The position numbers and the translations under genes are program-made. Shown one piece after another: positions 21,797-39,998 of a DNA stretch of 64,000 nt. The stretch covers positions 1,672 to 65,671 of the forward strand of contig CAWART010000015.1 of the NCBI GenBank assembly GCA_963784525.1. The letters run 5' to 3'. A model generated the notes under the pieces. That model was not told where the DNA came from and did no database searches. It saw only the letters and a program-made list of their open reading frames with translations. The DNA is from Candidatus Aminicenantes bacterium. Lineage in GTDB: Bacteria > Acidobacteriota > Aminicenantia > Aminicenantales > Saccharicenantaceae. The stretch's first letter is position 1. Each line of letters opens with the position of its first letter.

Positions 21797-22903
21797 ATGG
21801 AACCGTACGAAAACGAAGTCGACCTGATCGAATACCTCGAGACTCTCTGGAAACGACGGTGGCTCATCATCGTCCCGACCGTCATTATCGCTCTCCTCGC
21901 CGGCATCGTCAGCTACCTGATCCCGCCTCAATGGGAGGTCGATGCCATCATCCAGCCGAGCAAGTTCTTCGTCCAATCCGAGCAGGGGACGTTCACGGAA
22001 GTCGTGGTCATAGATCCCAACCTGCTCGCCGGACAGATCAATCAGGGATCCTACGACCGCATGATCGGCGCCAAGCTGAACCTGGACCCAAGGAAATTCC
22101 CGAAGCTGACGGCCACGAGCCTGAAGGACACCAAATTGGTCAGGGTGAGCCTCCGGACCGGGGACGGAGACAAGGACCGCCCGATCCTAAACGCTCTATT
22201 CGAGCTGATCAAGAGCGAGCTCGACCGGAAGATCGACGTCGAGATCAAGAGCATCGCGACACAGATCGCCTCGAAAGAAAACGATATCAAGGCCAGGGGA
22301 TTCGATATCCAATCCCTGGACATCGAGATCGAGAGGGCCCGGCAGGAGATCGTCGCCGCCGGGAACAAGCTGAAGATCTCGGAAGAGCGGTCCCGCGGCC
22401 TCGTCGAGGAAATGAAGGGCGTCAAGGCGCGCATCGACGAGATCGAGAAACAACAGAGATCGATGCTTGCCGAGAAACCGAGCGGGCTCGAGACCCTGGG
22501 GCTCCTCCTTTACTCCAACGAGGTCCAGCAGAACTTCCGTTACTACAATACTCTAGAGGAGAGCCTGAGCACGGAAAAGAACACCCAAGAGGACCTCCGG
22601 CTGTCCCTCCACGAGAAAGAGCAGATCATCAAGGGCATCAAAACCCAGATCGAGAAGGTCAACCAGGAGATCGTCGTACTGCGGAGCGACATGGATCTCG
22701 TGGAGGAAAGGAAGCAGCGCATCGATTACGCCCAGCTCGTCAAGGAGCCGACCGTATCGCTGAATCCGATCTTTCCGAAGAAGAGGGCGAACGTCGCGAT
22801 CGCCGGCATATTGGCGTTCTTCTCTTTCTCGATCCTGGCGCTCATCCTGGAATCCGTCAAAAGATGGAAGACCCGGCTCATATCCGGCTCCCGAAGCCAA
22901 TGA
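21797..22903 (+). CDS. Wzz-family polysaccharide chain-length determinant
   Basis: EVDLIEYLETLWKRRWLI, two terminal TM segments, a long coiled coil and P...PKK before TM2. Confidence 0.88.
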   Translation: MEPYENEVDLIEYLETLWKRRWLIIVPTVIIALLAGIVSYLIPPQWEVDAIIQPSKFFVQSEQGTFTEVVVIDPNLLAGQINQGSYDRMIGAKLNLDPRKFPKLTATSLKDTKLVRVSLRTGDGDKDRPILNALFELIKSELDRKIDVEIKSIATQIASKENDIKARGFDIQSLDIEIERARQEIVAAGNKLKISEERSRGLVEEMKGVKARIDEIEKQQRSMLAEKPSGLETLGLLLYSNEVQQNFRYYNTLEESLSTEKNTQEDLRLSLHEKEQIIKGIKTQIEKVNQEIVVLRSDMDLVEERKQRIDYAQLVKEPTVSLNPIFPKKRANVAIAGILAFFSFSILALILESVKRWKTRLISGSRSQ

Positions 22904-22940
22904 CGGGCAGATGTCCGAGCGGGGCTGTCCCTAATTTAAC

Positions 22941-22970
22941 TTGACACACAGACCCGTCGCTTCTTAGAAT
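22941..22970 (+). promoter_or_regulatory. sigma70 promoter upstream of the RAYT-like gene and polysaccharide operon
   Basis: TTGACA-18 bp-TAGAAT; a second TATAAT at 23060-23065. Confidence 0.65.
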
Positions 22971-23085
22971 TGGATAGGCGTTTAGCCTCGCGGCCGACGG
23001 ATGAGTGATGGAAACTGAGAATGGCAGGCCGTTTCCTCTTCCAAGAGTGGTAGCGTTCCTATAATAGCCGCCGTCCCTAATTAAT

Positions 23086-23751
23086 ATGCGCGCTTCACGT
23101 ACGGTCGCCCCGGGTCTCCCCCATCACGTGCTCCAGTACGGAAATTACGGCCACCGTGTGTTCGAGGACGCCGGCGATTATGAACATTATCTCGGCTGGC
23201 TCGCCGAATACTGCCGGCGTTTCGGCGTCGAGATCTGGGCCTATTGCTTGATGCCGAACCACGTCCATCACGTCTGCGTCCCGGGAACAGAAACCGGACT
23301 GGCCCGAACCTTCAATGCCCTGCATATGCGCTACGCACAGTACTTCAACCTGAAGCGCAATCTTCAGGGACATCTCTGGCAGGGGCGCTTCTATTCTTCC
23401 ATCCTCGACGACCGGCATGCTTATGAAGCCGTGCGCTTTGTCGAAACAAATCCCCTCCGCTGGCGCCTCGTCAACGAGGCCCAGGCTTATCCCTGGTCGA
23501 GCGCCCGGAGTCATGCCGCGGAGGCGGCCGATCCGGTGCTCCAGTCCGCCTGTCCGATCAAGGCCCGCGCGGGGGACTGGACCGTCTATCTGCAGGGGCC
23601 CGCCGATATCGCCGCGGTCGAGGCGCTCAGAAAGAACATGAAATCCGGAAAGCCCTGCGGGGACCGGGAGTTCGTCCGGGCTCTTGAAAGCATGTTGAGC
23701 CGGGACTTGACGGTCAGGCCCAGAGGAAGGCCGAGAAAGGTGGTCGCATGA
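23086..23751 (+). CDS. REP-associated tyrosine transposase (RAYT, Y1/HUH) homolog with apparent catalytic Tyr->Phe
   Basis: PGLPHHV, AYCLMPNHVH (HUH), GHLWQGRFYS, VRFVETNP (family form RY[IV]ExNP), YPWSS and C-terminal RGRPRK. Confidence 0.88.
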   Translation: MRASRTVAPGLPHHVLQYGNYGHRVFEDAGDYEHYLGWLAEYCRRFGVEIWAYCLMPNHVHHVCVPGTETGLARTFNALHMRYAQYFNLKRNLQGHLWQGRFYSSILDDRHAYEAVRFVETNPLRWRLVNEAQAYPWSSARSHAAEAADPVLQSACPIKARAGDWTVYLQGPADIAAVEALRKNMKSGKPCGDREFVRALESMLSRDLTVRPRGRPRKVVA

Positions 23752-25049
23752 TCAAGGAACGTGAGATCCTTTTATCCAAGATCGATTCCCGCCGGGCCAG
23801 GGTCGCCGTGATCGGCCTCGGCTATGTCGGCCTGCCGCTCGCCGTGGAATTCGCCAAGGCGGGCTTCCCGACGTTCGGCATCGACGTCGACGACCGCAAG
23901 GTCGCCGCGCTCAACGCCGGACGCTCCTATGTCCTCGACGTCCCCCAAAGCGATCTCGCGGGAGTGGTCCCCTCGGGGCATCTAAAGGCGACGTCGGATT
24001 TCGGCGTTCTGCGCGAGTGCGACGCCGTGTCCATCTGCGTCCCGACCCCCCTGTCGAAGACCCATGATCCGGACCTGTCCTATGTGGTCGCGGCCGTCGA
24101 TAAGGTCGCCCGGCACGTCCATCCCGGGATGCTGATCGTCCTTGAGAGCACTACTTACCCCGGTACGACCGACGAGATCATCATCCCGAAGGTCGTCCGG
24201 AGCGGCCATGAAGTGGGCCGGGACGTCTTCGTAGCGTTCTCGCCGGAGCGCACCGACCCCGGGCCGCAAGGACTTCACGCTGAAGACGACCCCGAAGATC
24301 GTCGGGGGGGCCACGCCGGCGTGCCTCGAGATCGCCACGGCGCTTTACTCCCATATCACCGGAAGGACCGTTCCGGTCAGCTCCGTCGCCGCCGCGGAGA
24401 TGGCTAAACTGCTCGAAAACACGTTCCGGGCGGTGAACATCGCCCTGGCGAACGAGACCCTTCTCATCTGTGACAAGCTGGGGCTCGACGCCTGGGAGGT
24501 CATCGAGGCCGCCGCTACGAAGCCGTACGGATTCATGAAGTTCACGCCCGGCCCCGGGGTCGGCGGCCACTGCATCCCGCTCGATCCCCAGTACCTCTCC
24601 TGGAAGCTGAGGACGCTGGATTACAACGCACGGTTCGTCCAGCTCGCGGAAGAGATCAACGGGCACATGCCGGCCTATTGGGTCGGCAAGGTCGTCGACG
24701 TCCTCAACGCCGCGAAGAAGGCCGCGAACGGCAGCCGGGTGCTGGTCCTGGGCGTGACCTACAAGCCCGATATCGACGACCTGCGAGAAAGTCCGGCTCT
24801 CGATATCATCAAGCTGTTGGTGAAATTGGGCGCCGCGGTGAGCTATCACGATCCGTTCGTGACCTCGTTGAAGCACGAGGGACTCGACGTCCCGTTCGCC
24901 GAGCTGACGGACGCGTCCCTGGACAAGGCCGATTGCGTGATGATCGTGACCGATCACGCCGCCTACGATTGGGACCGCCTGAGGCCCTCGGTCCGGGCCT
25001 TCGTCGATTGCCGGAACGCGCTGAAAAAAGTAGGGAGGTGGCCGCATGA
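23748..25049 (+). CDS. Nucleotide-sugar (UDP-GlcNAc-type) 6-dehydrogenase, frameshifted
   Basis: VIGLGYVGLPLA, ICVPTP, LESTTYPGTT, FSPER, KLLENTFRAVNIAL and PGPGVGGHCIP. The 3' end is approximate. Confidence 0.9.
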
Positions 25050-26100
25050 ACCGACGAGAGCTGACGGGACACGTTCAAGGGAAAGACCGTCCTCGTGACC
25101 GGGGGCACGGGAAGCTTCGGTCACCAGATCATCCGGGAGCTTCTGGCGCTCGACGCCGCCCGCATCCACGTCTACAGCCGGGACGAGAAGAAGCAGTACG
25201 ACATGGCCATGTCGTATCGCCGGCATCGGAACCTGCTGTTCAACATCGGCGACGTCCGGGACCTCGAGAGGACGCGCGACGCGATGCGCGGCGTCGACAT
25301 CGTCTTCAACGCGGCCGCCCTCAAACAGGTCCCGAACTGCGAGTACGCGCCGTTCGAGGCCGTCGCGACCAATGTCATCGGCGCCAACAACGTCCGGCGG
25401 GCCGCGATCGAGGCCGGCGTGAGCACCGTCGTCTCGATCAGCACGGACAAGGCCGTCAAGCCGGTCAACGTCATGGGCATGACCAAGGCGCTCCAGGAAC
25501 GGATCATGCTCGATCCGTCGTACAGCGGAGGGGCCACGAGGTTCGTGTGCGTCCGTTACGGGAACGTCCTGGGCAGTCGCGGAAGCGTCGTCCCCCTGTT
25601 CTTCGACACCATCAAAAAAGGCCTCCCGCTCCCGATCACCCACCCCGATATGACGCGGTTCCAGCTGACATTGAAGGAAGCCGTCCGGCTCGTCCTCTGG
25701 GCGACCGTCAAGGGCGAATCCGGCGATCTCTGGGTCCAAAAGATGCCCGCGGCGCGGATCCCCGACCTGGGGCTGGCGCTGGCCCATGGCCTCACCGGCC
25801 GGAAGGACTATCCCCTGGCCGTCATCGGGCTGCGGCCGGGCGAGAAGATGCACGAGGTCCTCGTCTCTGAAGAGGAAATGTGGCGCGCCACGGAGCTCAA
25901 GAACTATTTATGTGATCCCGTCCTGGGCGAGATCCCAGGACAAGAAGACCCCCGAGGGGGTCCGGGTCTCCGAATATTCCTCCGCGGGGACGCATCTTCT
26001 GACCCGGGAGGAGCTCCTGGCCCTGCTGAAGTCCGACGGCTGGTTCGGGCCCGACGCCCCGAGAATGGCCGCCAAAGGGATCGAGATCGATGAAGGCTGA
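25046..26100 (+). CDS. UDP-GlcNAc 4,6-dehydratase/5-epimerase (FnlA/CapE/PseB-like), frameshifted
   Basis: TGGTGSFG, SRDEKKQ, AAALKQVP, STDKAV..NVMGMTKA, RYGNVLGSRGSVVP and RPGEKMHE. Confidence 0.9.
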
Positions 26101-27196
26101 GCGCGCGCCCATTCCCCTGTTCAAGGTCTTCCTGGCCCCCGAGCGGGAGCTCATGCCGCGTCTCCGGGACGTCCTTTACAGCGGCCAGATCAGCGAGGGC
26201 GCGCCCGTCTATGAGTTCGAGAGGAGGTTCTCCGCCTTCGCCGGACTCCCCAACGTCCTTTCTTTCTACAGCGGCACGGCCGCCCTCCACGCCGCCCTGA
26301 TCCTTGCCGGCGTCGGGGCCGGGGATGAGGTCATCTCGACCCCGATGACCGCGGAGCCGACGAACATGGCTATCCGCCATGCCGGCGGCACGATCGTCTG
26401 GGCCGACGTGGACCCCGCCAACGGGAACCTCACGGCCGCGGCGATCGCCGACCGGGTCACCCCGCGAACGAAGGCCGTCATGGTCGTCCATTACGGCGGG
26501 ATCCCCGCCCCGATGGACGGCATCCGGGAGATCGCCGGGCGGGCCGGCGTGCCGGTCGTGGAGGACGCGGCCCATGCCCTCGGGGCGCGCTACGGCGACC
26601 TGCCGATCGGGGCCCTCTCCGCGTACGCCGTCTTTTCTTTCCAGGCCGTCAAGCACCTGACCACTGTGGACGGCGGCATGTTGGCCTGCCGGGATCCCGG
26701 CGATCTTCCGCGCGGGCGCGCCCTCCGCTGGTTCGGGATCGACCGTCAAGCCTCCCGGACCGAGGTGGACGTGACGACTGTCGGCTACAAGTATCACATG
26801 AACAATGTCAACGCGACGATCGGCCTGGTCCAGCTTGATCATGCCGCTTCCGTGATCGAACGGCATGTCGCCAACGGCCGCTTTTTCGATGCCGCTCTTC
26901 GGGGAATTCCCGGGCTGGACCTCTGCGGTTGGGAAGAAAAGGCCCGGCCCTCCTATTGGTTCTACACGGTCCTGGCGGAGCGGCGAGAGGAGCTCTCCCG
27001 ATACCTCACAGAGCACGGGATCGGGAATTCCCAGGCCCACAGACGCAACGATCTGCATTCCGTGTTCGCGTCCAGCCGCCGGGATCTTCCCGGCCTCGAT
27101 ATCTTCTATTCCCGCATGCTTCATATCCCATGCGGTTGGTGGGTAAGCGATGAGGACAGGGAATTCATCGTCGAAGCGATCCGGCGGGGATGGTGA
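26090..27196 (+). CDS. DegT/DnrJ/EryC1/StrS PLP-dependent sugar aminotransferase
   Basis: SGTAALH, EDAAHALG and FSFQAVKHLTTVDGG (catalytic Lys present). Confidence 0.92.
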   Translation: MKAERAPIPLFKVFLAPERELMPRLRDVLYSGQISEGAPVYEFERRFSAFAGLPNVLSFYSGTAALHAALILAGVGAGDEVISTPMTAEPTNMAIRHAGGTIVWADVDPANGNLTAAAIADRVTPRTKAVMVVHYGGIPAPMDGIREIAGRAGVPVVEDAAHALGARYGDLPIGALSAYAVFSFQAVKHLTTVDGGMLACRDPGDLPRGRALRWFGIDRQASRTEVDVTTVGYKYHMNNVNATIGLVQLDHAASVIERHVANGRFFDAALRGIPGLDLCGWEEKARPSYWFYTVLAERREELSRYLTEHGIGNSQAHRRNDLHSVFASSRRDLPGLDIFYSRMLHIPCGWWVSDEDREFIVEAIRRGW

Positions 27197-27257
27197 CCCC
27201 GTGCGCGCGGGCGCGCCGGGGGAGCTGCCCCGGGCGGATCGGAGAGTCCGGAAAGAC

Positions 27258-28367
27258 ATGATCCCGCTCTACAAGGTGCACATGCCGCCCGATATCGGGA
27301 GCCTCGTGTCCGGCGTTCTGCGCTCCGGGCGACTCTCCGGGGGGCCGTATGTCGACAGGTTCGAGGCCCTCCTCGGCGAATATCTCGGGAATCCGCTGGT
27401 CTCGGCGACAGGCGACGTCTCTTCGTCGCTGACCCTTTGCTTGCGCCAGGCCGGCGTCGGGCCCGGAGCCGAGGTCCTGATGTCTCCGCTCGTCTGCTTA
27501 TCGACGAGCAGTCCGGTGAAGAACCTCTTTGCCGATATCCGCTGGTGTGACGTCGATCCATTGACGGGGAATATCGACCCTGCCGAAATCGCGAAAAGGA
27601 TGACGCCGCGAGCCAAAGCGATCGTGGTCTATCACTGGGCCGGCAATCCCGCCGACCTTGCGGCGATCCATGCGGCAGCCCGGGATCACGGCCTCGCCGT
27701 CATCGAGGATGCCGGAGAGGCGCTCGGCGCCGAATACCACGGAAAGAAGATCGGCGCAACCGGTTCGGACTTTACGGTCTTTTCGTTCTATCCCAACCGT
27801 CACCTGACGACCATCGAAGGCGGAGCCATCGCCTGCGCGCATAAGGATGACTATGAAAAAGTGCGCCGGCTGAAGCGGTACGGAATCCATCGGGCCAGTT
27901 TCCGCGACGAAGACGGCGAAATCAATCCCGCATCCGATATCCCTGTTGCCGGTTGGAACTCCTACATGAATCACGTGGCGGCCACGGTCGGGGTCGCGCA
28001 GATGGAGCACCTCCCCCGGATCGTGGCCCGTCATCGGGAGAACGGCCTGTTCTACGATCATATGCTGGTGGATGCTCCTGGGGTAACGGTCTTACGAAGG
28101 CCTGCCGATTCATCCTCGGCCTACTGGGTCTACACGTTCCTCGCCCGGGAGCGCGACCGCCTTCTCGAGGCGCTCCGCCGGAACGGGGTTCAGGCCTCGA
28201 AGGTCCATCTCCGGAACGATCTTTATACGGCGTTCGGGAGCGGCCCGGAGGACCTTCCGGGCGTGAAGGAATTCTCGGACCACTGCCTGAGCGTCCCTTG
28301 CGGCTGGTGGGTGACCGACGAGGAGCGCTCCCGAATATCGGACCTCATCCGTCATGAAGCGCACTGA
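27258..28367 (+). CDS. DegT-family paralog with Arg at the Schiff-base Lys position
   Basis: EDAGEALG and FSFYPNRHLTTIEGG; C-terminal PCGWWV shared with the upstream paralog. Confidence 0.88.
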   Translation: MIPLYKVHMPPDIGSLVSGVLRSGRLSGGPYVDRFEALLGEYLGNPLVSATGDVSSSLTLCLRQAGVGPGAEVLMSPLVCLSTSSPVKNLFADIRWCDVDPLTGNIDPAEIAKRMTPRAKAIVVYHWAGNPADLAAIHAAARDHGLAVIEDAGEALGAEYHGKKIGATGSDFTVFSFYPNRHLTTIEGGAIACAHKDDYEKVRRLKRYGIHRASFRDEDGEINPASDIPVAGWNSYMNHVAATVGVAQMEHLPRIVARHRENGLFYDHMLVDAPGVTVLRRPADSSSAYWVYTFLARERDRLLEALRRNGVQASKVHLRNDLYTAFGSGPEDLPGVKEFSDHCLSVPCGWWVTDEERSRISDLIRHEAH

Positions 28368-29280
28368 CGCAGGCGTTGATGGCGCGGATATCCGCATCCG
28401 GCCGTGCGCGCCTTCGGACCTGCCCGCGGTCATCGCCGCCGTCGATCGGGAGTTCATCTTCGATAAGGGGCGATCGCTCTCCATGGCCCGCCGTTACCCG
28501 AACGTCCTGTCCCTCGATAACCTCGGACACATCCTCGTCGCCGGAAGCCGCCGCTCGATATGCGGCGCGCTGGGGATCAGGACCTTCGATTATGCCGACG
28601 GGCCCCGCGTCTGGCGGGGCGCGATGATCGGCATGGTCTGGGTCGATCCCCGCTGCAGGGGAAAAGGGCTCGGGAGGGCGCTGATGGCAGAGGCCGAGCG
28701 CGTCCTCAAGGAAGAGAGTCTGGACTTCGGCGTGCTGTGGACGGGGATCCCCGGATTCTATGAGCCGGGAGGCTGGTCCCCGAAGGATCCCAGCCTGTTC
28801 GGAGAAGCGCTCGCAGGTTCCCCGGCCCCGGGTGCGGCCCCGGCGGTCCCGATGCCCCTGAGTCCGGAGGATGCCGTGCGCCTGGAAAGGGCGAGGGCTT
28901 GCCTGGAATCCCGCCGCGTCATCCGAAAGCCCGCCGACTACAGGGTCATCCCGACGCCCGCCGTCGAGGTTCTCTGCTTTTGGGCTTCCGGAACGGGAGC
29001 CGAGGGGTATGCCCTTGCGGGCGAAGCGGATGGGGAGGGCTACTTATACGAGATGGTGGCGCCTCCGGAGCTTTGGGACGGATTGTGGTCCGGCCTGATG
29101 GGGCGTTTCAAGCGGCTCTGGGTCAACGGCCGGGCGGGCGATCCCTTCTCCCGATGGATTGCGGACAAAGGCTTTGCTCTTCTCCGGCCCCAGAGCAAGA
29201 CCATGTGGCATCGCCTGTCCCGCGTCGCGTCCCCGGCTCCCTGGGAGACCTGGCACATCCCCTACTTCGATCGGATCTGA
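28354..29280 (+). CDS. GNAT-family N-acyltransferase
   Basis: IGMVWVDPRCRGKGLGRALM acetyl-CoA motif and FYEPGGW. Confidence 0.8.
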   Translation: MKRTDAGVDGADIRIRPCAPSDLPAVIAAVDREFIFDKGRSLSMARRYPNVLSLDNLGHILVAGSRRSICGALGIRTFDYADGPRVWRGAMIGMVWVDPRCRGKGLGRALMAEAERVLKEESLDFGVLWTGIPGFYEPGGWSPKDPSLFGEALAGSPAPGAAPAVPMPLSPEDAVRLERARACLESRRVIRKPADYRVIPTPAVEVLCFWASGTGAEGYALAGEADGEGYLYEMVAPPELWDGLWSGLMGRFKRLWVNGRAGDPFSRWIADKGFALLRPQSKTMWHRLSRVASPAPWETWHIPYFDRI

Positions 29281-30804
29281 ATGATGATCAGACGGAACAT
29301 CGTGGCGAACATGATCGGCCGCGCCTGGGGGGTCCTATCGGTCTATTTATTCGTTCCGCTCTACCTGAAGTTCCTCGGGATCGAAGCCTTCGGCCTCGTC
29401 GGATTCTACTCCACGCTTCTCGGGGTGCTTGCCTTCGCGGACCTGGGGCTGACGGCGACGCTCAGCCGCGAAATGGCCCGCCTTGAGGCTCGCGAAGGCA
29501 CGGCCGGGGAGATGGGCGACCTTCTCCGGACGTATGAATCCATCTATCTCGGCATCTCTCTGGCCCTCGCTTCCGTGATATGGCTTCTGGCGCCGGTCAT
29601 CGCCGGGCGCTGGCTTCAAGCCAGCGCGCTTCCCCCGGCGGAGATCGCTTCGGCCATAAGGATCATGGGAATCGCCATCGCCTTCCAACTGCCGGCCACC
29701 CTGTATTCGGGCGGGCTTTTCGGCCTGCAAAGGCAGGTCATGGCCAATTTCCTTTCGATCGGCTGGAGCGTATTGCGCGGGGTGGGCTCGGTGCTGGTGT
29801 TATGGTTCGTGTCCCCAACGATCCTGGCTTTCGCTTTCTGGCAGCTCTTCTCGAATGCCGCTTATTGTTTCGCGGTTCGCTCCGGCCTTTGGCACTCCTT
29901 GCCCGCCCCGCCGGCCCGGCCGGGATTCAAGAGCGCGGTGCTCCGCAACACATGGCGTTACGCATCGGGGCTGGCCTGCCTGACCCTCTTATCGGGCATT
30001 CTGAAGCAGGCGGACAAGCTGGCGGTCAGCAAACTGATGCCTTTGGAGGTCTTTGGGTACTACACGCTTGCGGGCTCGCTGGCCATGGCGCCCCTCCTGC
30101 TCGCCAATCCTATCGCCATCGCCGTCTTCCCCCGCCTGACCGGACTTGTCTCCACGGGCGACGGAGCTCCGCTCAAGCGGATCTATCACAGGGCTTGTGC
30201 TCTGGTCAGCGTCGCCGTCTTCCCGGGGGCATTGACGCTGGCTCTCTATGCAGGCGATTTCATCTTTGCCTGGACGGGCTCCGTCGCCGCCGGCCATAAG
30301 GTAGGGACCGTCGCCGCCCTCCTGTTGGCCGGTCAGGCCATGCAAGCCATTACGGTCGTGCCGTATTATCTGGCCCTCGCGCACGGGAATATCAAGCTGA
30401 ACCTGTGGATCGGCACGGCTTCGGTGCTGATCATCACACCGCTCCTCATTCTCCTGATCAAGAGGTTCGGCGTCGTCGGCGGAGGGATCTCATGGCTGAT
30501 CCTGACCCTCTGCACATTGCCGCCCTATATGTATTTTCTACACCGCCGCTTCCTGCCCGGCGAGTCCCTCTCCTGGATCCTGCACGATATCGGGCGCCCC
30601 CTGCTGGCGTCCCTGCCCGCGATCATCCTGGCCTCACATCTATGGCCTCACTCATCGACCCGCGTGATCGTCTTCGCCCAGATCGGCCTGGTCTGGGGCG
30701 TCTCGCTCGTCTCCGCCGTAATGGCCATGCCCGAATTCCGCGGCGAGCTCATCCTGAGGGCGAGAAAGCTTCTGGGCGCGTCGATGGAGAGAAGGCCGGA
30801 TTGA
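29281..30804 (+). CDS. wzx: Wzx oligosaccharide flippase
   Basis: MOP-type multi-TM protein: RNIVAN..G, LGIEAFGLVG, DLGL, DKLAVSKL...FGYY. Confidence 0.88.
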   Translation: MMIRRNIVANMIGRAWGVLSVYLFVPLYLKFLGIEAFGLVGFYSTLLGVLAFADLGLTATLSREMARLEAREGTAGEMGDLLRTYESIYLGISLALASVIWLLAPVIAGRWLQASALPPAEIASAIRIMGIAIAFQLPATLYSGGLFGLQRQVMANFLSIGWSVLRGVGSVLVLWFVSPTILAFAFWQLFSNAAYCFAVRSGLWHSLPAPPARPGFKSAVLRNTWRYASGLACLTLLSGILKQADKLAVSKLMPLEVFGYYTLAGSLAMAPLLLANPIAIAVFPRLTGLVSTGDGAPLKRIYHRACALVSVAVFPGALTLALYAGDFIFAWTGSVAAGHKVGTVAALLLAGQAMQAITVVPYYLALAHGNIKLNLWIGTASVLIITPLLILLIKRFGVVGGGISWLILTLCTLPPYMYFLHRRFLPGESLSWILHDIGRPLLASLPAIILASHLWPHSSTRVIVFAQIGLVWGVSLVSAVMAMPEFRGELILRARKLLGASMERRPD

Positions 30805-30805
30805 C

Positions 30806-31787
30806 ATGAGGATCGCCGCCGTCACGATCGCCTATAACGACCATTACAAGATCAGGGAGTGGCGTTCGCATTACGAAGAATATAGGAACGAGATCTTTCG
30901 GCATATCATTGTCGACAACGGCTCCGACCCTGATTTTTCCCGGCTTCTCGATACTCTATTCCCCGACTCGATCATCATCAAAAGAGATACGAACATGGGG
31001 ACCACGGCCGCCTACAACGAGGGGATCAGATACGCCCTGGAAAACAACGAGGTCGATTCCCTCCTCCTGATCGGAAACGACATTCGCCTGCCTTCCGGAA
31101 ATCTCTCGATCCTCCACAAGGCCCTTTTCGATCGCGAGTCCTGCGGCGCCATCATGCCGATCCTCTTTTCCAAAGACTCCGACCTCATCGAGAGCTACGG
31201 GGCCGAGATCAATAGGGTGCTGTTCCTGAGCCAGGCGCACAGGAACGAAAAGGTTCGCGATGCGCTGCCCGAGATCCGCGAGGTGGGAGCCGTCGGCGGG
31301 CGGTATTCACCTGGCCAAAAGGGGGACCTACGAGACCATCGGACTCCAGGACGAGAGCCTGTTCATGTACGGAGACGAGATCGATATGGGAATCAGAATG
31401 GCCGCAACCGACATCAAGGCGATGGCCACGAGGCGGGCCGTCGCCTGGCATCAGCACATTTCGCCGACCGGCTCGTCGTGCCGCGAGCGATATGCCGTAT
31501 TCCTCATCCGAAGGAACAACATCTATCTGGCTTATAAGCACTTCGGGTTCCCGCGGGCGCTGGCCGTATTCTTCACTCTGATGGCGAGGACGCCGGTCAT
31601 GGCCGCCGCTTTCCTGAAAAAACGGGCCCCGGGTCATCTCCGTTACTATTGGCTCGGCTGCATTTGCGGAATATGCCGGATTCAAAAGAACTTTCGCTTC
31701 ATTGTCGATAATTTGGGGGATGAGGGACGCCGAAGGCGTGAGGCCCGTTCCCAAGCCGCCCCCCCGGCGCCGCGGAAAGTCCGATGA
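30806..31787 (+). CDS. Glycosyltransferase family 2 (frameshift near 31300)
   Basis: IIVDNGSD, NMGTTAAYNEG and FMYGDEIDMGIR, in two ORFs. Confidence 0.82.
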
Positions 31788-33085
31788 TCGAGCCTGACGT
31801 TACGAAAACGGCCGTGAGCGGGACCCGAAAGCTCCTGAGCCGGGCGCTGTTCCTGACCGCTCTGGGGCCGCTATACAACGACATCCTTCTATTCCGCGTC
31901 GCCGGATTCGCGGTGACGCCGGTGCATCTGATGCTCGTCGTGACGGTCATCGCCGCCCTCATGAGCCCTCGACACGTCAACGGGCCGCTCGCCCTGATCG
32001 TCCTCTCCATGCTCCTCCTCGAGGTCTCCCACGCCCTGTTGTTCGGGTCCCTCTTCCGGGCGGACTGGGTGAGGTCCTTCGCACAATATCTCGTCTACGC
32101 GACCGCTTTTGTCCTGGTCGCGGGAGTGGCGTTGGAACGTGAGGATCTGCTGGGCATCGCGCCCTGGCTCCGAAGATGTGCGGTCTTTTTCTCTGGTCTG
32201 GGCATCATTCAATTCGTCCTGAACAACTCCGGCTTTGCCCTGTCGTTGCCCGCATACCTTCGCGTCAAGGCTTACGATCCCTTTGCCGAAGCCCGGACCG
32301 GGGGCTTCGTTCCGGCCCAGGGCCTGGCCATGGAACCGTCCTATTACGCCATCGGTCTCGTCATGCTGCTGGCGCTCGTTCTGTTCTTCGATACCGTCGT
32401 GCCCCCCCATCATAAAGGCCTTTCCCGCGCCGCCGTTCTGATGCTCCTTGCCGGGATCGCGACCTCTTTCTCCATGACGGGCATAATTTCGGCGGGCCTC
32501 GTCATTTTCGTACATCTTGCGTCCTCCGGCCCGACTAAAAGGATCAGGAATATTATCATGCTCGGCGTGCTCCTTTTGATCCTTGTCGCGAGCGGGGTCG
32601 TCCGGCCCATCGGGTCACGGCTGAACAGCATCGCCCGGGGCGCCGACAACTCGGCCTTGGTCAGGGTCGAGCTGGCCGTTCGGGTGTTCTTCGCTCCGGC
32701 GAGGGACCTGGAGACGTTCTTTCTGGGCACGGGTCTGGGGCTGGAGGCGCGCAATGCCGATGATTACTTCCGCCTCTACCATGATGTGGCCCTGATCGCC
32801 CCGGAAAGCGACACGGTCAGGATCCACAACATCCTGACGGCGCTCAGGTATCTCCAGGGCTGGTTGGGGGTCCTCCTGTATGGGATCCTGATGGGAACGA
32901 TGCTCCTGGTCACGAAGGGAGAATGGCGTCCGTTCGCCGTCCTGCTGAGCTTCCTCATCCTCTTCCACTTCGCCGTGGGCTTATACCTGGCGCCGGGCAC
33001 CTGGGCCGCATTCGCCCTATGGGCCGTTCTGCGGCGCTCCCAGCTATCCATGTCCAAACTTCCCGAAGAGGCCTTCTCCTCATGA
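31784..33085 (+). CDS. Probable Wzy O-antigen polymerase
   Basis: About 10 TM segments, GLAMEPSYY, FLGTGLG...IHN; located inside the wzx cluster. Confidence 0.7.
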   Translation: MIEPDVTKTAVSGTRKLLSRALFLTALGPLYNDILLFRVAGFAVTPVHLMLVVTVIAALMSPRHVNGPLALIVLSMLLLEVSHALLFGSLFRADWVRSFAQYLVYATAFVLVAGVALEREDLLGIAPWLRRCAVFFSGLGIIQFVLNNSGFALSLPAYLRVKAYDPFAEARTGGFVPAQGLAMEPSYYAIGLVMLLALVLFFDTVVPPHHKGLSRAAVLMLLAGIATSFSMTGIISAGLVIFVHLASSGPTKRIRNIIMLGVLLLILVASGVVRPIGSRLNSIARGADNSALVRVELAVRVFFAPARDLETFFLGTGLGLEARNADDYFRLYHDVALIAPESDTVRIHNILTALRYLQGWLGVLLYGILMGTMLLVTKGEWRPFAVLLSFLILFHFAVGLYLAPGTWAAFALWAVLRRSQLSMSKLPEEAFSS

Positions 33086-33095
33086 CGGATCAGCC

Positions 33096-34322
33096 GTGAG
33101 CCCACGACGCCGCTTGCCCCTTCTCTTCCTTTCCTGGGAAAGCCTCTGGCCCGCCCACAGCGGCGCGGCCCTGAGAAGGCTGGGGTTGTTCACGGAGCTC
33201 AGTAAAACCTGTTCCGTCGACCTTATCGTGTTGACGCGCCAGCCGCTCCCCTTGGAGGGATCGGCCTTTCTCGGCGCCCGCGCGCAAAACGTCACCTGGC
33301 TCCCATTGCGCGACGTCGCGATAAGGGACAGGTTGCGGGCGCTCGGCCGGATGTTGCGCCGAGGCTATCCGTACCACAGCGCGGTCCTTGAATGTTCTCT
33401 CGCCGAACATCCCGAGATCAGGCGCAGGATCGCCGATTTCCCGGGGATCGTATTCACGAGCACGGGTCATTGGGGGACGCTGATCCGTGACCGCCCGTCG
33501 CCCAACTGGATCCTGAACCAATGCGACGCCGACGTAGACCTCTGGAGGGTCTACGCGAATCAAGCGACGCATCCCCTTTCGCGCTGGGCCGCGCGCCTGA
33601 ACTATCGCCTCGCGCGCCGTCACTATCCGCGGATCTACGCCAATGTCGGCCGCATCATCTCGGTTTGCGAAGAGGATCGGCTCCAGACCCTTTCCCTGGC
33701 CCCTCGAGCCCGGGTGGACGTAATCGAGAATGGCGTCGATTGTTCGTACTATGCCCCCCACAAGGCGCCGCGGACCGGCCCGCCCCGGCTCCTCTTCACC
33801 GGCACCTCCGCCGCCCGTAATGTGACGGCGCTTCGGGGATTCGTGAAGAACGTTCTGCCTCTGATCCGGTCAAAGGTCCCTGAATCGGAGCTTCTCGTGG
33901 GGGGCGACTTCAGCGCCAAGGCCCAGGCCGGGTTCGCGGGAATCCCCGGCCTGCGCTTCACCGGACGCGTCGACGATATGCGGCCGGTCTTCGAGCAAAG
34001 CGATGTCTTCGTGGCCCCTTTCGAGGAGACCCACGGCTCGAAGCTCAAGGTCGCGGAGGCGATGGCCATGGGGATGGCCATCGTGACGACGCCCGCCGGC
34101 ATTCGGGGATTCTCGCTCATCGACGGGGAATCGGTCCTGGTCGCCCGGGACGACGAGCGATTTGCCGCCCTGGTCACGCGGCTGCTCCGGGATCCCCTCG
34201 AGCGGGAGCGGCTCGGCGCCGCGGCCAGGCACGCGGCCCTCGCGACGATCGATTGGGCCGTCCTGGGGAAGAGATTGACGCACATCGTCGAAAGCGCACG
34301 CGCTCAAAGGAGCCGGCCGTGA
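33096..34322 (+). CDS. Glycosyltransferase family 4
   Basis: NGVD, FTGRVDD and GSKLKVAEAMAMG. Confidence 0.88.
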   Translation: MSPRRRLPLLFLSWESLWPAHSGAALRRLGLFTELSKTCSVDLIVLTRQPLPLEGSAFLGARAQNVTWLPLRDVAIRDRLRALGRMLRRGYPYHSAVLECSLAEHPEIRRRIADFPGIVFTSTGHWGTLIRDRPSPNWILNQCDADVDLWRVYANQATHPLSRWAARLNYRLARRHYPRIYANVGRIISVCEEDRLQTLSLAPRARVDVIENGVDCSYYAPHKAPRTGPPRLLFTGTSAARNVTALRGFVKNVLPLIRSKVPESELLVGGDFSAKAQAGFAGIPGLRFTGRVDDMRPVFEQSDVFVAPFEETHGSKLKVAEAMAMGMAIVTTPAGIRGFSLIDGESVLVARDDERFAALVTRLLRDPLERERLGAAARHAALATIDWAVLGKRLTHIVESARAQRSRP

Positions 34323-34331
34323 GCCTGTGAA

Positions 34332-35603
34332 ATGCGGATATTATATCTTCATCAATACTTCACCCTGCCGTCCGGGGCCGGCGGCACGCGCTCCTACGAG
34401 ATGTCCCGCCGCCTCGCCGCGGCCGGGCATCGGGTGACCGTGATCACATCCACGGCCAACCTGGGGGAGATCTTTCCGCCGGCGGCGGGTTGGCAGGCCC
34501 GGGATGTCGAAGGGATTCATTTGGAAGCCGTCGGCGTGCCCTACGACAACGCGATGTCGTTCATCGAGCGCATCAGGGCCTTCGTCCGATTCGCCGCCCG
34601 CGCGTCCTGGCATGCCGCGAAATTCGACCCCGACGTCGTCTTCGCTACCAGTACGCCGCTGACGATCATCATCCCGGCCCTCGCGGCGCGCCTGCGGCGC
34701 CGCGTTCCGCTGGTTTTCGAAGTGCGCGATCTGTGGCCGGACCTGCCCATCGCCGTGGGGGCGCTCCGCCATCCCCTGGCCAAGGCGGCCGCCCGATGCC
34801 TGGAATGGATCGCCTATCGCGCGTCGACCCATGTCGTGGCGCTCTCTCCCGGCATGGCCCGCGGCGTCATGCGGCGCGGCATACCCGCTTCGAAAGTGAC
34901 CGTCATTCCCAACGGCTGCGACGTCGCCCTTTTCGAGGTTCCCGCCGTGGACGGGGAATGGGTCCGTCAGCGGCTGGGAATGACGCCCGGACAGCCGCTG
35001 GTCGTCTATGCCGGGGCCTTCGGCCTTGTCAACGGATTGGGCTATCTGGTGGACCTGGCCGCCTCCATGAGAGCCATCGCCCCGGAGATCCGCTTTCTGC
35101 TCGTGGGGAGCGGCGCCGAAGCCGACGAATTGAAAGCCCAGGCCGAGCGCGCGGGGATCCTCGATCGCACCCTGTGGATCTGGCCGCCGGTCCCGAAATC
35201 CCAGGTCCCGGGGCTGATGGCCGCCGCGACGACCGCGGTTTCCGTGGTCATCCCTCTGAAGGCCCTGGAGGATAATTCCGCGAACAAGTTCTTCGACGCG
35301 CTGGCGGCCGGGAAGCCGGTGGCCGTGAATCACGAAGGCTGGCAGGCCGATATCCTTCGGGAGAGCGCCGCGGGCATCGTCCTCCCGGCGGACGACGCCG
35401 CGATGGCGGCCGGCCTGTTATCGGATTTCCTCCATGATCCGGACCGCCTGGATAAGGCTTCGGCGGCTTCCCGGCGATTGGCCCACGATGTGTTCTCCCG
35501 AGATCTTCTCGCCGCCCGGTTGGCGCACGTCCTGGAAGCGGCGGTCGGGAAGCGACCGGCGGGAAACGCCGGGAGCCCTATGGGAACGCGAGGCCCGCGG
35601 TGA
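34332..35603 (+). CDS. Glycosyltransferase family 4, WbuB-like
   Basis: YLHQYF..P..AGGTRSYE, FEVRDLWP and NKFFDALAAGKP. Confidence 0.88.
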   Translation: MRILYLHQYFTLPSGAGGTRSYEMSRRLAAAGHRVTVITSTANLGEIFPPAAGWQARDVEGIHLEAVGVPYDNAMSFIERIRAFVRFAARASWHAAKFDPDVVFATSTPLTIIIPALAARLRRRVPLVFEVRDLWPDLPIAVGALRHPLAKAAARCLEWIAYRASTHVVALSPGMARGVMRRGIPASKVTVIPNGCDVALFEVPAVDGEWVRQRLGMTPGQPLVVYAGAFGLVNGLGYLVDLAASMRAIAPEIRFLLVGSGAEADELKAQAERAGILDRTLWIWPPVPKSQVPGLMAAATTAVSVVIPLKALEDNSANKFFDALAAGKPVAVNHEGWQADILRESAAGIVLPADDAAMAAGLLSDFLHDPDRLDKASAASRRLAHDVFSRDLLAARLAHVLEAAVGKRPAGNAGSPMGTRGPR

Positions 35604-36257
35604 ACGATCGCGCCAGGGACGTCGGACACCGGGAAGAGGGGCTTTACCGGCGCCTCGGTAAGCGCCTGCTCGACATCGCCCTGGCGCTTCCGGCCCTGGT
35701 CATCCTGGCGCCCTTCATGGGCGTGCTGGCCGTGCTCGCAGGCCTGATCCTCGGCCCTCCCGTTCTATTCCGCCAGCGGAGGCCTGGATGGCGGGCCAAG
35801 GCCGTTCACCCTGGTCAAGTTCCGCACGATGGTCGAAGCCCGGGACGGTGAGAACCCCTGTTCATCGGACGCCGATCGCTTGACGCCTTTCGGGCGGGTC
35901 CTCCGCGGGCTCAGCCTGGACGAGCTGCCCGAGCTCCTGAACGTCCTGAGGGGCGACATGAGCCTCGTAGGTCCCCGTCCCTTGTTGATGCAATATCTCG
36001 AGCGGTACACTCCGGAACAGGCAAGGAGACACGAGGTCAAGCCTGGGATAACCGGCTGGGCCCAGGTGAACGGCCGGAACGCGCTGACTTGGGAAGAACG
36101 ATTCGAGCTGGACGTCTGGTACGTGGACCATGTCTCTTTGCGGCTCGACATCCTGATCCTGGCGCGGACCATGTGGAAGGTGCTGAAGCGCGAGGGCATC
36201 AATCAGCCGGAGCATGCGACGATGAAAGAATTCATGGGAAGCGGAGAGCACGAATGA
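35600..36257 (+). CDS. Monotopic phosphoglycosyl transferase (PglC-like), frameshift near 35795
   Basis: KRLLDI, PVLFRQ.RPG, SLDELPEL.NVLRGDMSLVGPRP and KPGITGWAQVNGR. Confidence 0.92.
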
Positions 36258-36892
36258 GCAAACGCGTGTACATTTATGGTTCGGGCGGGCATGCCAGGGT
36301 CATCGCAGATATCCTCGTCGCCGAAAGAAAGGAAGTCCTGGGCTTCATCGATGACGACCCGTCGAAATGGAGGAAGGACGGGCCGGGCCCTGAGGTCATC
36401 GGCTTTGAGGCGTTCCCGGGGAAGGAAGCGGATTTCTGGGTGATCATAGGCATAGGCGACAACGGGGCCCGGAAGCGGGTCGCCGCAAAGATGGAGGCGG
36501 CCGGAAGGCCGCGATTCGATACGGCCGTTCATCCGTCGGCCGTCATCAGCGGCAACACGAGCCTCGGTCAGGGGACGGTCGTCATGGCCGGCGCCGTGAT
36601 CAATTGCGGCTCAACGATCGGACGGCATGTGATCATCAACACGGGGGCGTGTATCGATCACGATTGCCGAATCGACGATTTCGTCCATATCTCCCCGGGG
36701 GCCCGCCTCGGAGGCGGGGTCTCGGTCGGGGCCGGAAGCTGGATCGGGCTGGGCGCCTCGATCATCAATAATTGCCGGATCGGCAGGAACGTCATCGTGG
36801 GAATGGGAGCGGTCGTGATCAAGGACATACCGGATTCCTGGGTGGTGGCCGGCAATCCGGCGCGCTTCCTCAGGATGAACGAGGAAGACTGA
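36254..36892 (+). CDS. Sugar N-acetyltransferase (PglD/NeuD-like)
   Basis: GSGGHA, IGIGDN..R and hexapeptide repeats with IDHDC. Confidence 0.9.
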   Translation: MSKRVYIYGSGGHARVIADILVAERKEVLGFIDDDPSKWRKDGPGPEVIGFEAFPGKEADFWVIIGIGDNGARKRVAAKMEAAGRPRFDTAVHPSAVISGNTSLGQGTVVMAGAVINCGSTIGRHVIINTGACIDHDCRIDDFVHISPGARLGGGVSVGAGSWIGLGASIINNCRIGRNVIVGMGAVVIKDIPDSWVVAGNPARFLRMNEED

Positions 36893-36893
36893 C

Positions 36894-38023
36894 ATGCCGC
36901 GCATCTATCTCTCCCCTCCCCACATGTCCGGCGAGGAGCAGGCGTTCGTCGCCGAGGCGTTCCGGTCGAACTGGATCGCGCCGCTCGGGCCGATGGTGGA
37001 CGCCTTCGAGACGGAGGTGTGCGCGCGCGTCGGCGTCGCCCACGGCGCGGCGCTGTCCTCGGGGACGGCGGCCCTGCATCTGGCGATGCTGCTCCTCGAT
37101 ATCCGGGCCGGCCAGGAGGTTCTCTGCGCGACCCTGACCTTCAGCGCGACGGCGAACGCGATCACCTATGTCGGCGCGCGGCCCGTGTTCATCGACAGCG
37201 ACAGGGAGACATGGAACCTGGACCCGGACCTTCTCGAGGAGGAGCTGGCGGGGCTCGCGAAGAACGGCCGCCGGCCCGGGGCGGTCATTGCCGTCGACCT
37301 TTACGGGCAATGCGCCGATTACGGGCGCATCGAGGAGATCTGCCGGGCCCATGGCGTGCCTCTCATCGAGGACTCGGCCGAGGCCCTGGGCGCGACCTGC
37401 GGCGGGAAACAGGCCGGAGCTTTCGGCAAGATGGCCGTCTTTTCGTTCAACGGGAACAAGATCATCACGACCTCCGGCGGAGGAATGCTGGTTTCCTCCG
37501 ATGGGGATCTCGTCCGCAGGGCCCGCTTTCTGGCCACGCAGGCCCGGGACCCGGCCCCGCATTATCAGCACTCCCGCATCGGCTACAATTACCGGATGAG
37601 CAACATCCTGGCCGCGATCGGGAGGGGACAGCTCAGGGCGCTGGATGAGCGGATCGCGGCGAGACGCCGCAACTTTGAGCATTATCGGGCCGCCCTGTCG
37701 GGGCTCCCGGGCATCGAATTCATGCCCGTCGCTTCCTACGGGAAGCCGAACTATTGGCTGACCGTCATTTTGATCTCTCCGGAGGAGTTCGGCGCGGACC
37801 GTGAAGGGGTGCGGCGGCCCTCGAGGCCGAAGATATCGAAGCCCGGCCGATCTGGAAGCCGATGCACCTTCAGCCGGTCTTCGCCGGATGCCGCGTTCGG
37901 GGCGGGGATATTTCCGCGGATCTTTTCGCGCGCGGATTGTGTTTGCCCTCGGGCAGCCGGATGAGCTATGATGATCTGGACCGCGTGGTGGGAACCGTCA
38001 AGAGCTGTCGGGGGACAGCGTGA
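36894..38023 (+). CDS. PglE-like sugar aminotransferase (frameshift near 37820)
   Basis: RIYLSPPHM, SNWIAPLGP and SFNGNKIITTSGGG. The C-terminus (RPIWKPMHLQP...LCLPSG) is in another frame, ending at TGA 38021-38023. Confidence 0.92.
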
Positions 38024-38083
38024 TCGGCGCGATCGGAGAAGCGCCCCTGGGGAGGGGTATATTTTATTGATGGGAACCGAAGC

Positions 38084-39967: not shown

Positions 39968-39998
39968 GAGGCAAGAAGCGAACGGCCGGGAAGAACCC

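Follow-up and report, generated by a model that had tools for sequence, protein, structure and literature searches.

A tyrosine-less TnpA-Y1 protein at the head of surface-glycan operons in Aminicenantes, and its possible domestication as a DNA-binding regulator

A stretch of 64,000 nucleotides (hereafter the window) of contig CAWART010000015.1, from the Candidatus Aminicenantes assembly GCA_963784525.1, was analysed around the gene for a 221-residue protein, P0001. The protein belongs to the TnpA-Y1 transposases, and its gene is the first of an 18-kb same-strand cluster of the Wzx/Wzy type. It retains the HUH motif of these enzymes and carries phenylalanine at position 118, where the catalytic tyrosine is expected. 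The gene and its leader contain the following features.

22924..22936, plus strand: copy 1 of a promoter-upstream box, GCTGTCCCTAATT, 5 nucleotides ahead of the -35 element.
22941..22970, plus strand: sigma-70-type promoter, TTGACA (22941), 18 nucleotides, TAGAAT (22970); match 11/12.
23046..23055, plus strand: ops-like element, variant AGTGGTAGCG (in relatives, CGGCGGTAGC); confirmed by contigs of runs X1 and X3.
23070..23082, plus strand: box copy 2, GCCGTCCCTAATT, ending 3 nucleotides before the ATG, where a ribosome-binding site would be expected.
23086..23751, plus strand: gene for the Tyr-less TnpA-Y1 protein (subclass 2.1, TIRYT-like) P0001, 221 amino acids; Pfam Y1_Tnp, 45.9 bits.
23260..23268, plus strand: HUH motif H59-V60-H61 (CAC GTC CAT), intact.
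23437..23439, plus strand: TTT, encoding Phe118 of VRFVETNP at the catalytic-Tyr position (F118-x3-N122-P123).
23716..23742, plus strand: AT-hook-like basic tail RPRGRPRKV, residues 211-219.

A first-pass annotation, made from the letters alone, had taken P0001 for a nuclease-dead RAYT transposase domesticated to regulate the glycan genes. Its description of the open reading frame (ORF) was borne out: the 221-residue frame is complete, with HVH and with TTT at position 118, and reads PHHVLQYGNYGH at the N-terminus, with the segment HHVLQYGNYGH. The homologue alignment contains 25 invariant columns, and within the basic tail G214, R215 and P216 are invariant in the alignment of 117 homologues (alignment A1). 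With the Pfam AT_hook model the tail gave 13.8 bits (E 0.053), short of the threshold of 17.4, and sub-threshold matches to this model were present in 28 of the 117 members. Bac_DnaA_C, HTH_23 and HTH_28 were not among the 25 families listed of 36 matched by these members at E ≤ 1, and no match of 0.9 or above was found in the Protein Atlas for residues 138-221. The gene is present in one copy in its own genome, which is 74% complete.

Since TAT and TTT differ by one base, the first-pass annotation had also raised the possibility of an assembly error at codon 118. Logan short-read contigs of four runs on freshwater sediment, all from the same study and one of them possibly the source sample, were compared with the window over positions 22850-25150. 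Indel errors in the assembly were real, with contigs one base shorter near 24257-24264, at 25024 and at 25070, but the codon at 23437-39 was unaffected and read the same in runs X2, X3 and X4. Residue 118 is F or L in orthologues of 95, 82, 81, 75 and 72% identity. Because the contigs and the closest orthologues agree, Phe118 is genuine and not an error.

P0001 scored 45.9 bits against Pfam Y1_Tnp (PF01797) over residues 14-119, above the cut-off of 23, and 51.6 bits against the NCBIfam RAYT model NF047646 (REP_Tyr_transpos), below its cut-off of 80. An AlphaFold2 model of the protein was obtained with a pLDDT of 90.7. The top Foldseek match in the PDB was E. coli TnpA-REP (4er8_A; E 2.4e-8, TM 0.70 normalised to the target), followed by the IS608 and ISDra2 TnpA proteins. 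A phmmer search of the PDB sequences with P0001 by itself gave chance matches only; the A1 profile was needed, and it matched 4er8_A at E 5e-6. The nucleophilic Tyr of these enzymes lies on helix alpha-D. In this profile alignment, counted by hand, F118 falls on Y115 and N122-P123 on N119-P120 of TnpA-REP. Papers are cited here for the passages drawn on: in these, the class-2 catalytic motif is given as Y---NP (PMC6006769) and N119 of TnpA-REP as a metal ligand (PMC3479197). According to the title of its PDB entry, a Y132F mutant of ISDra2 TnpA was crystallised with its cleavage site. P0001 thus shares with TnpA-REP, its best structural match, the HUH and Asn metal site, and the known activity of the TnpA-REP family is base-specific recognition of single-stranded DNA. 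It differs in being only 17% identical, in lacking the tyrosine and any REP or BIME around its gene, and in its C-terminal 80 residues, which comprise a helical domain and the AT-hook-like tail.

The motifs NHVH, W-Q, x-x3-NP and P-W-S138-S139 of subclass 2.1 are all present in P0001, the tyrosine being the sole exception; the published motif table for this subclass lists NHVH, W[EQ], Y[IV]xLNP and SS, with a length of about 238 amino acids (PMC6006769). Because the motifs, the length and the missing REPs fit, the P0001 family can be assigned on sequence grounds to TnpA-Y1 subclass 2.1 of Quentin (2018), which is RAYT group 1 of Bertels (2017). From what the two surveys describe, subclass 2.1 probably also corresponds to the TIRYTs of Di Nocera 2013 (PMC6006769, PMC3733652). 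The RAYT label of the first-pass annotation needs refining: P0001 is closer to TIRYT/subclass 2.1 than to the REP-associated RAYTs (51.6 bits against 80). With the TIRYTs it shares a length of about 220-240 amino acids, the NHVH, W-Q, x-x3-NP and SS motifs, the lack of REP hairpins and a GGGGWSAS-type motif near the gene. Unlike a TIRYT, which has a C-terminal helix-turn-helix-like domain, it has only a weak AT_hook match; its clade, described below, also differs from TIRYTs in the replaced catalytic Tyr and relaxed Q99, in lacking the flanking pair of inverted repeats, in re-using the end motif in opposite orientation at the promoter, and in its fixed position at the head of glycan operons. 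The family as a whole is large, with 26,945 representative clusters at E ≤ 1e-3 and 403 at E ≤ 1e-30.

Column 118 was occupied by F in 56, Y in 55, L in 5, H in 2, N in 1 and R in 1 of the best 120 homologue matches. In a FastTree phylogeny of 289 sequences P0001 fell inside a clade of 109 tips. A quick IQ-TREE search on 105 rows, from which column 118 was left out, separated 55 clade rows from 50 others by a branch with an SH-aLRT of 89.7. The catalytic signature H59/H61/Q99/Y118/N122 (HHQYN) was intact in 7 of the 109 clade sequences and in 176 of the 180 outside. At position 118 itself the clade has F in 77 sequences, Y in 20, L in 6, H in 5 and N in 1, whereas 177 of the 180 outside sequences have Y; the Phe that the first-pass annotation feared might be a singleton is the commonest residue of the clade and, with L, that of the closest orthologues. 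The trees imply at least 13-15 changes between Tyr and other residues. The first histidine of the HUH motif was kept almost throughout (H59, 108/109) and the second in 102 of 109, the remaining seven having Gln. Q99 was kept in 30 of the 109 sequences and mostly replaced by R, K or H, and every Tyr-keeping clade locus has K or R at this position. Glu114, one helical turn ahead of residue 118, is present in 109/109 clade sequences, whereas the residue outside is mostly Ala. Tyr113 of P0001, five residues upstream, had been suggested as a substitute nucleophile; this idea was abandoned, since column 113 in the clade is mostly occupied by other residues, the four commonest being F (39), L (23), R (17) and H (15). 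P0020-P0036, which are 61-66% identical to P0001, have R-Y-D-E-T-N-P with Tyr118 kept, but in six of them Gln stands in place of His61 (HVQ). Which catalytic residue has been lost thus differs from branch to branch.

Selection on the gene was estimated by the Nei-Gojobori method as the ratio of nonsynonymous to synonymous substitution rates (dN/dS). The ratio was 0.12-0.14 for the window gene against loci L035, L036 and L037, and 0.12-0.19 among those four; over 201 pairs with dS between 0.05 and 1.5 the median was 0.21. Intact ORFs were found in about 30 loci. Because the signature is mostly broken and dN/dS is low, constraint acts on the protein as a whole but has been relaxed on catalysis. 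That the Tyr-less variants belong to a clade under purifying selection, a point which the first-pass annotation had proposed to test, was supported by the branch support and by dN/dS values of 0.12-0.21.

The surroundings of the gene in the window are those of a surface-glycan locus.

21797..22903, plus strand: Wzz-type chain-length determinant gene, directly upstream (Pfam Wzz, E 4.8e-14); same layout in L035, the nearest orthologous locus.
23748..25098, plus strand: UDP-sugar (ManNAc/GlcNAc-type) dehydrogenase, identified by Pfam and NCBIfam; two ORFs (23748-24407 and 24400-25098).
25095..41789, plus strand: rest of the Wzx/Wzy-type glycan cluster, from family scans.

The cluster encodes 4,6-dehydratases, three DegT aminotransferases, GNAT and PglD-like acetyltransferases, a Wzx flippase, two GT1 proteins and a Wzy_C protein. 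The TGA of P0001 overlaps the ATG of the dehydrogenase gene (ATGA, 23748-23751), exactly as first described, and the same overlap is present in L035. The dehydrogenase orthologue in L035 is intact, with 427 amino acids; the split of the window gene is due to assembly indels and not to pseudogenisation, and its 3' end is probably misread. Farther along, between the flippase gene and that of a 433-residue membrane protein, two ORFs in different frames overlap (30806-31537 and 31260-31787). No Pfam match at 1e-6 was found for 30806-31534, and the pair looks like another frameshifted gene, possibly for a glycosyltransferase.

A nucleotide-sugar, flippase or glycosyltransferase gene was found on the same strand at +1 or +2 in 22 of 23 evaluable clade loci. 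These were the window, L035-L039, L041-L043, L138, L139, L141, L143, L146, L150, L151, L165, L166, L175, L181, L184 and L191; L148 and L156 were left out of the count, as was L176, a duplicate of L175. The exception, L040 (= L059), is followed by two unassigned ORFs and preceded by a divergent fucose-activating gene. Among loci outside the clade, 9 of 87 had a glycan-family neighbour at -1, +1 or +2, divided into none of nine paralogues in relatives, 3 of 38 GTDB loci (counted without L096-L134 and one neighbour of L095) and 6 of 40 metagenome loci. The last were relatives of at most 55% identity, a set without P0002-P0012 (76-95% identical). The linkage to glycan loci proposed for the Tyr-less form was therefore found in the clade (22/23 against 9/87). 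The genes downstream vary by clade locus and include dehydrogenase, flippase, GDP-fucose and rml genes.

The promoter region of the gene is also conserved. The near-consensus promoter TTGACA-18-TAGAAT noted in the first pass was recovered (11/12) by a scan that returned two promoter-like sites in 2.4 kb against 0.7 expected. Of 32 clade loci, 21 have TTGACA-N16-19-TAnAAT within 600 nucleotides upstream, and in all 21 the sequence (G)CTGTCCC(C/T), followed by 8-10 A/T-rich bases, comes ahead of the -35; the clade consensus is GCTGTCCC(C/T), an A/T tract and TTGACA. Four of the 11 clade loci missed by the regular expression have less than 320 nucleotides of upstream sequence. L143 has the same promoter and box, farther upstream, and an ops-like motif ahead of an inserted methyltransferase gene. 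The two window copies, GCTGTCCCTAATT and GCCGTCCCTAATT, are direct repeats identical at 12 of 13 positions and are the only two such matches in the 64-kb window, where 0.19 were expected; 2 of 100 shuffles reached two. GTCCCTAATT occurs four times in the 2.88 Mb of the own genome. Copy 2 also lies ahead of the start codon, as YGTCCCTAWT, in L035, L036 and L037. No box copy was found downstream of the P0001 gene, in keeping with the earlier statement that no REP lies there. The window leader RNA was not unusually stable (z = +1.14; folding was as good or better in 175 of 200 shuffles). What the first-pass annotation took for REP-like remnants are accordingly not hairpins but two direct copies of a conserved promoter box with a match to the TIRYT end motif.

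This end motif, reported as GGGGWSAS (PMC3733652), fits GGGGACAG, of which CTGTCCCC is the reverse complement. Outside the clade, forward GGGGWSAS was found upstream in 56 of 123 loci, with a peak 50-150 nucleotides before the start, and its reverse complement within 300 nucleotides downstream in 41 of 124; both copies occurred together in 29 of 108. In the clade the forward upstream copy was found in 1 of 29 loci, the downstream copy in none of 32 and the pair in none of 29; 20 of 29 have the reverse complement on the upstream side instead. Flanking inverted repeats such as those of the Tyr-bearing relatives have been lost from the clade. A search for the box at five ops-led flippase operons of the genus that carry no HUH gene was negative, and the other GTCCCYAWT sites of the own genome lie ahead of genes without an obvious theme, as judged by eye.

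Two further repeat families contain related motifs. The own genome (G000) carries five copies of GGAAACGGGTATTGTGTCCCYAAT, at C4:14299(-), C12:9716(-), C12:21098(-), C18:19138(-) and C18:19195(+), the two on C18 being inverted and 57 nucleotides apart. This repeat contains GTGTCCCC, a reverse complement of GGGGWSAS, and may be a relic terminal inverted repeat or a REPIN-like family cognate to the P0001 family. In L039, L041-L043, L141, L144, L146, L150 and L166, the interval from the ops-like element to the start codon holds long inverted repeats GGGGACAWG...CGTGTCCCC, numbering one to several per locus and in tandem in L042 and L150; they are absent from the window. They are REP-like hairpins composed of the GGGGWSAS-type motif.

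The leader of the gene also contains an ops-like element. The ops core has been described as GGCGGTAG (PMC2871177), and the window sequence AGTGGTAG matches it at 6 of 8 positions, with two mismatches. In alignment A2 the columns G-GGTAGC are invariant in 30/30 leaders. Of 33 evaluable clade loci, 31 carry GG[CT]GGTAG on the coding strand in the 350 nucleotides ahead of the gene; among about 130 other loci, one does. At many loci the start codon follows about 10-15 nucleotides past the motif, with no obvious Shine-Dalgarno sequence. No Rfam family, JUMPstart included, was matched by the window leader and 11 related leaders at E values up to 1, and RNAalifold on 30 leaders gave a three-pair ops mini-hairpin only, with no compensatory changes. 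The 12-mer CGGCGGTAGCYT was not above its reversed control genome-wide in 25 relatives, so it is informative by position only.

The same leader precedes Polysacc_synt flippase operons without a HUH gene, in G000 (contig C23), G002, G004 and G005, and an unclassified ORF in G007; a clade member was not found in G004 or G005, which are 92-93% complete. The element before flippase operons reads CA[AT]CGGCGGTAGCYTG at C23:135467-135478(-) of G000 and at L216, L218, L220 and L221. The own genome encodes a 171-residue NGN protein (L214:1279-1791:-) whose best match is the RfaH model TIGR01955, at 66 bits against a cut-off of 144.5, and most relatives have a second, weaker-scoring NGN gene. Because the same leader heads operons without a HUH gene, the ops-like element is a general feature of glycan operons in this Aminicenantes genus, most simply read by the RfaH-like factor and not by P0001. 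Antitermination by P0001, as suggested in the first-pass annotation, thus has a simpler candidate in the RfaH-like NusG paralogue together with the ops-like leader, the latter also heading operons in genomes where no clade member was found. The arrangement resembles the RfaH/ops and UpxY/UpxZ systems: the 5' leader carries an ops-like GGCGGTAG, a two-mismatch variant in the case of the window, the genome encodes a candidate NusG paralogue of RfaH-like type, and the first gene looks like that of a regulator. This first gene encodes a HUH protein and not a NusG paralogue. As RfaH has been described as about 95% proteobacterial in the passages cited (PMC7593976), an ops/RfaH-type circuit in this organism would be noteworthy by itself. 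At L217 and L219 (G005 and G007) an ops-like leader with a poly-T tract is followed by a gene for an AAA_14/DUF4143 ATPase; genes of this ATPase family also occur directly ahead of Tyr-bearing members of the P0001 family at L062 and L071.

The reading that we cautiously consider probable is that P0001 is a domesticated, non-cleaving DNA-binding protein that binds the box, an ancestral end motif, and so controls its own glycan operon. The protein would be unable to cut DNA and would have been kept for sequence-specific binding. It would still recognise GGGGWSAS, now reverse-complemented just upstream of the -35 (22924-36), with a second copy over its own translation start (23070-82) in the sub-clade of the window. 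A/T tracts adjoin the boxes, and the AT-hook-like tail may contact the adjoining tract. By binding, P0001 would adjust how its own operon is transcribed or translated, acting as an autoregulator or as a glycan-gene switch, and control of elongation through the ops-like site would be left to the RfaH-like NusG paralogue. The first-pass idea of a domesticated, nuclease-dead regulator thus stands as far as the real Phe, the selected clade and the glycan linkage are concerned, and its regulatory part is suggested by conservation of the box and by its likeness to the end motif of the family.

Several points weigh against this reading. Seven clade proteins retain the full signature, and some members may still be enzymes. 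The AT_hook match falls short of the Pfam threshold, and a helix-turn-helix domain was not detected in the C-terminal half by the family scan. The closest relatives, L035, L036 and L037, were not matched by the promoter regular expression. GTCCC(C/T) lies 7-12 nucleotides before TTGAC at seven other sites of the own genome (control, two), one of them a tRNA 3' end, and another factor might use the box as its operator. The organism is known as an uncultured Aminicenantes metagenome-assembled genome; the loci are largely metagenomic and probably interrelated, so the counts are not independent, and ORF calling was crude, following an in-house rule based on GC content at third codon positions (GC3).

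Among the alternatives, P0001 could be domesticated and selected without regulating the operon, either as a binder of single-stranded DNA or RNA in replication, repair or gene exchange, or as a translation-coupling leader ORF that couples ribosomes to the ops-modified polymerase, its position being in either case a historical accident. Purifying selection and a conserved position fit this account without any regulatory function, as do the start codons placed shortly after the ops-like motif and the differing gene content downstream. A mere leader ORF, however, would not hold 221 residues at a dN/dS of about 0.13-0.2 with 25 invariant columns, and a box matching the family's own end motif is a feature of these promoters that other ops operons lack; we regard this account as rather unlikely. 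The ops-like element itself could instead be the target, with P0001 reading its GTAG in non-template single-stranded DNA or in RNA and helping or competing with the RfaH-like factor. TnpA-REP is described as binding 5' GTAG base-specifically on single-stranded DNA (PMC3479197), GG[CT]GGTAG is nearly confined to clade loci in the counts above, and at many of these it occupies the ribosome-binding position of the gene. The same leader, though, stands before flippase operons without a HUH gene, the genome has an RfaH-like paralogue and most relatives a second NGN gene, and the 12-mer is no commoner genome-wide than its control, which together make a role of P0001 as ops reader quite improbable. 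In a further reading that we consider distinctly unlikely, the dead HUH protein would read single-stranded DNA within transcription complexes, either the melted box or the GTAG of the ops bubble, and would gate loading of the RfaH-like factor on glycan operons. P0001 would then parallel the RNA-guided TldR repressors, as a protein-only counterpart derived from a transposon. These nuclease-dead, TnpB-like proteins offer, in our reading, an analogy in that a transposon nuclease without catalysis has been re-used as a regulator; as described in the passages drawn on, TldR is an unrelated, RNA-guided protein of RuvC fold, whereas regulation by P0001 is suggested by sequence comparison.

It could also be supposed that P0001 is still a nuclease or strand transferase, with water or another residue as the nucleophile. 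The metal ligands of the HUH motif and N122 are kept, an invariant Glu114 has been gained one helical turn before residue 118, and the seven clade proteins with a full signature speak for the same view. Against it, residue 118 varies among F, Y, L, H and N, Q99 survives in fewer than a third of the sequences (30/109), H61 is Gln in seven and Tyr113 is not conserved; the flanking repeats, the would-be substrates, are gone and the gene is single-copy. Continued catalysis by P0001 is in our view very improbable. The last alternative, a decaying and functionless transposase remnant or a Phe created by an assembly error, could draw on the indel errors that do occur in the window and on the treatment by Quentin et al. 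of members without core motifs as probably non-functional, in the passage cited (PMC6006769). With about 30 intact ORFs at a dN/dS of 0.12-0.21, F or L in orthologues of 72-95% identity and three contigs agreeing on TTT, it is largely refuted and retains next to no probability.

HUH/Y1 transposases and RAYTs are widely called domesticated, and we know of no cellular function that has been established for them. The clade of P0001 offers a concrete case, in which a strongly selected protein has lost catalytic residues, the transposon ends are gone and the end motif survives at a conserved promoter, with the gene also fixed ahead of surface-glycan operons that have an ops-like leader. In the parts of the surveys drawn on, the catalytic Tyr was reported as conserved (PMC3733652) and sequences without HuH/Y motifs were removed as probably non-functional (PMC6006769); polysaccharide loci are not mentioned by Bertels et al. 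2017. Literature searches found no paper on a glycan-linked or a Tyr-less or nuclease-dead Y1 or RAYT protein, which does not prove that none exists, and the supplementary alignments of PMC6006769 and PMC3733652 might show Tyr-less members. The clade also carries a warning for annotation, since the main survey discarded Tyr-less members on the presumption that they do not function, as its cited passage describes (PMC6006769). If P0001 binds the box, it would illustrate the route from single-strand DNA transposase to transcription factor, and it would represent a new type of regulator for polysaccharide genes outside the Proteobacteria.

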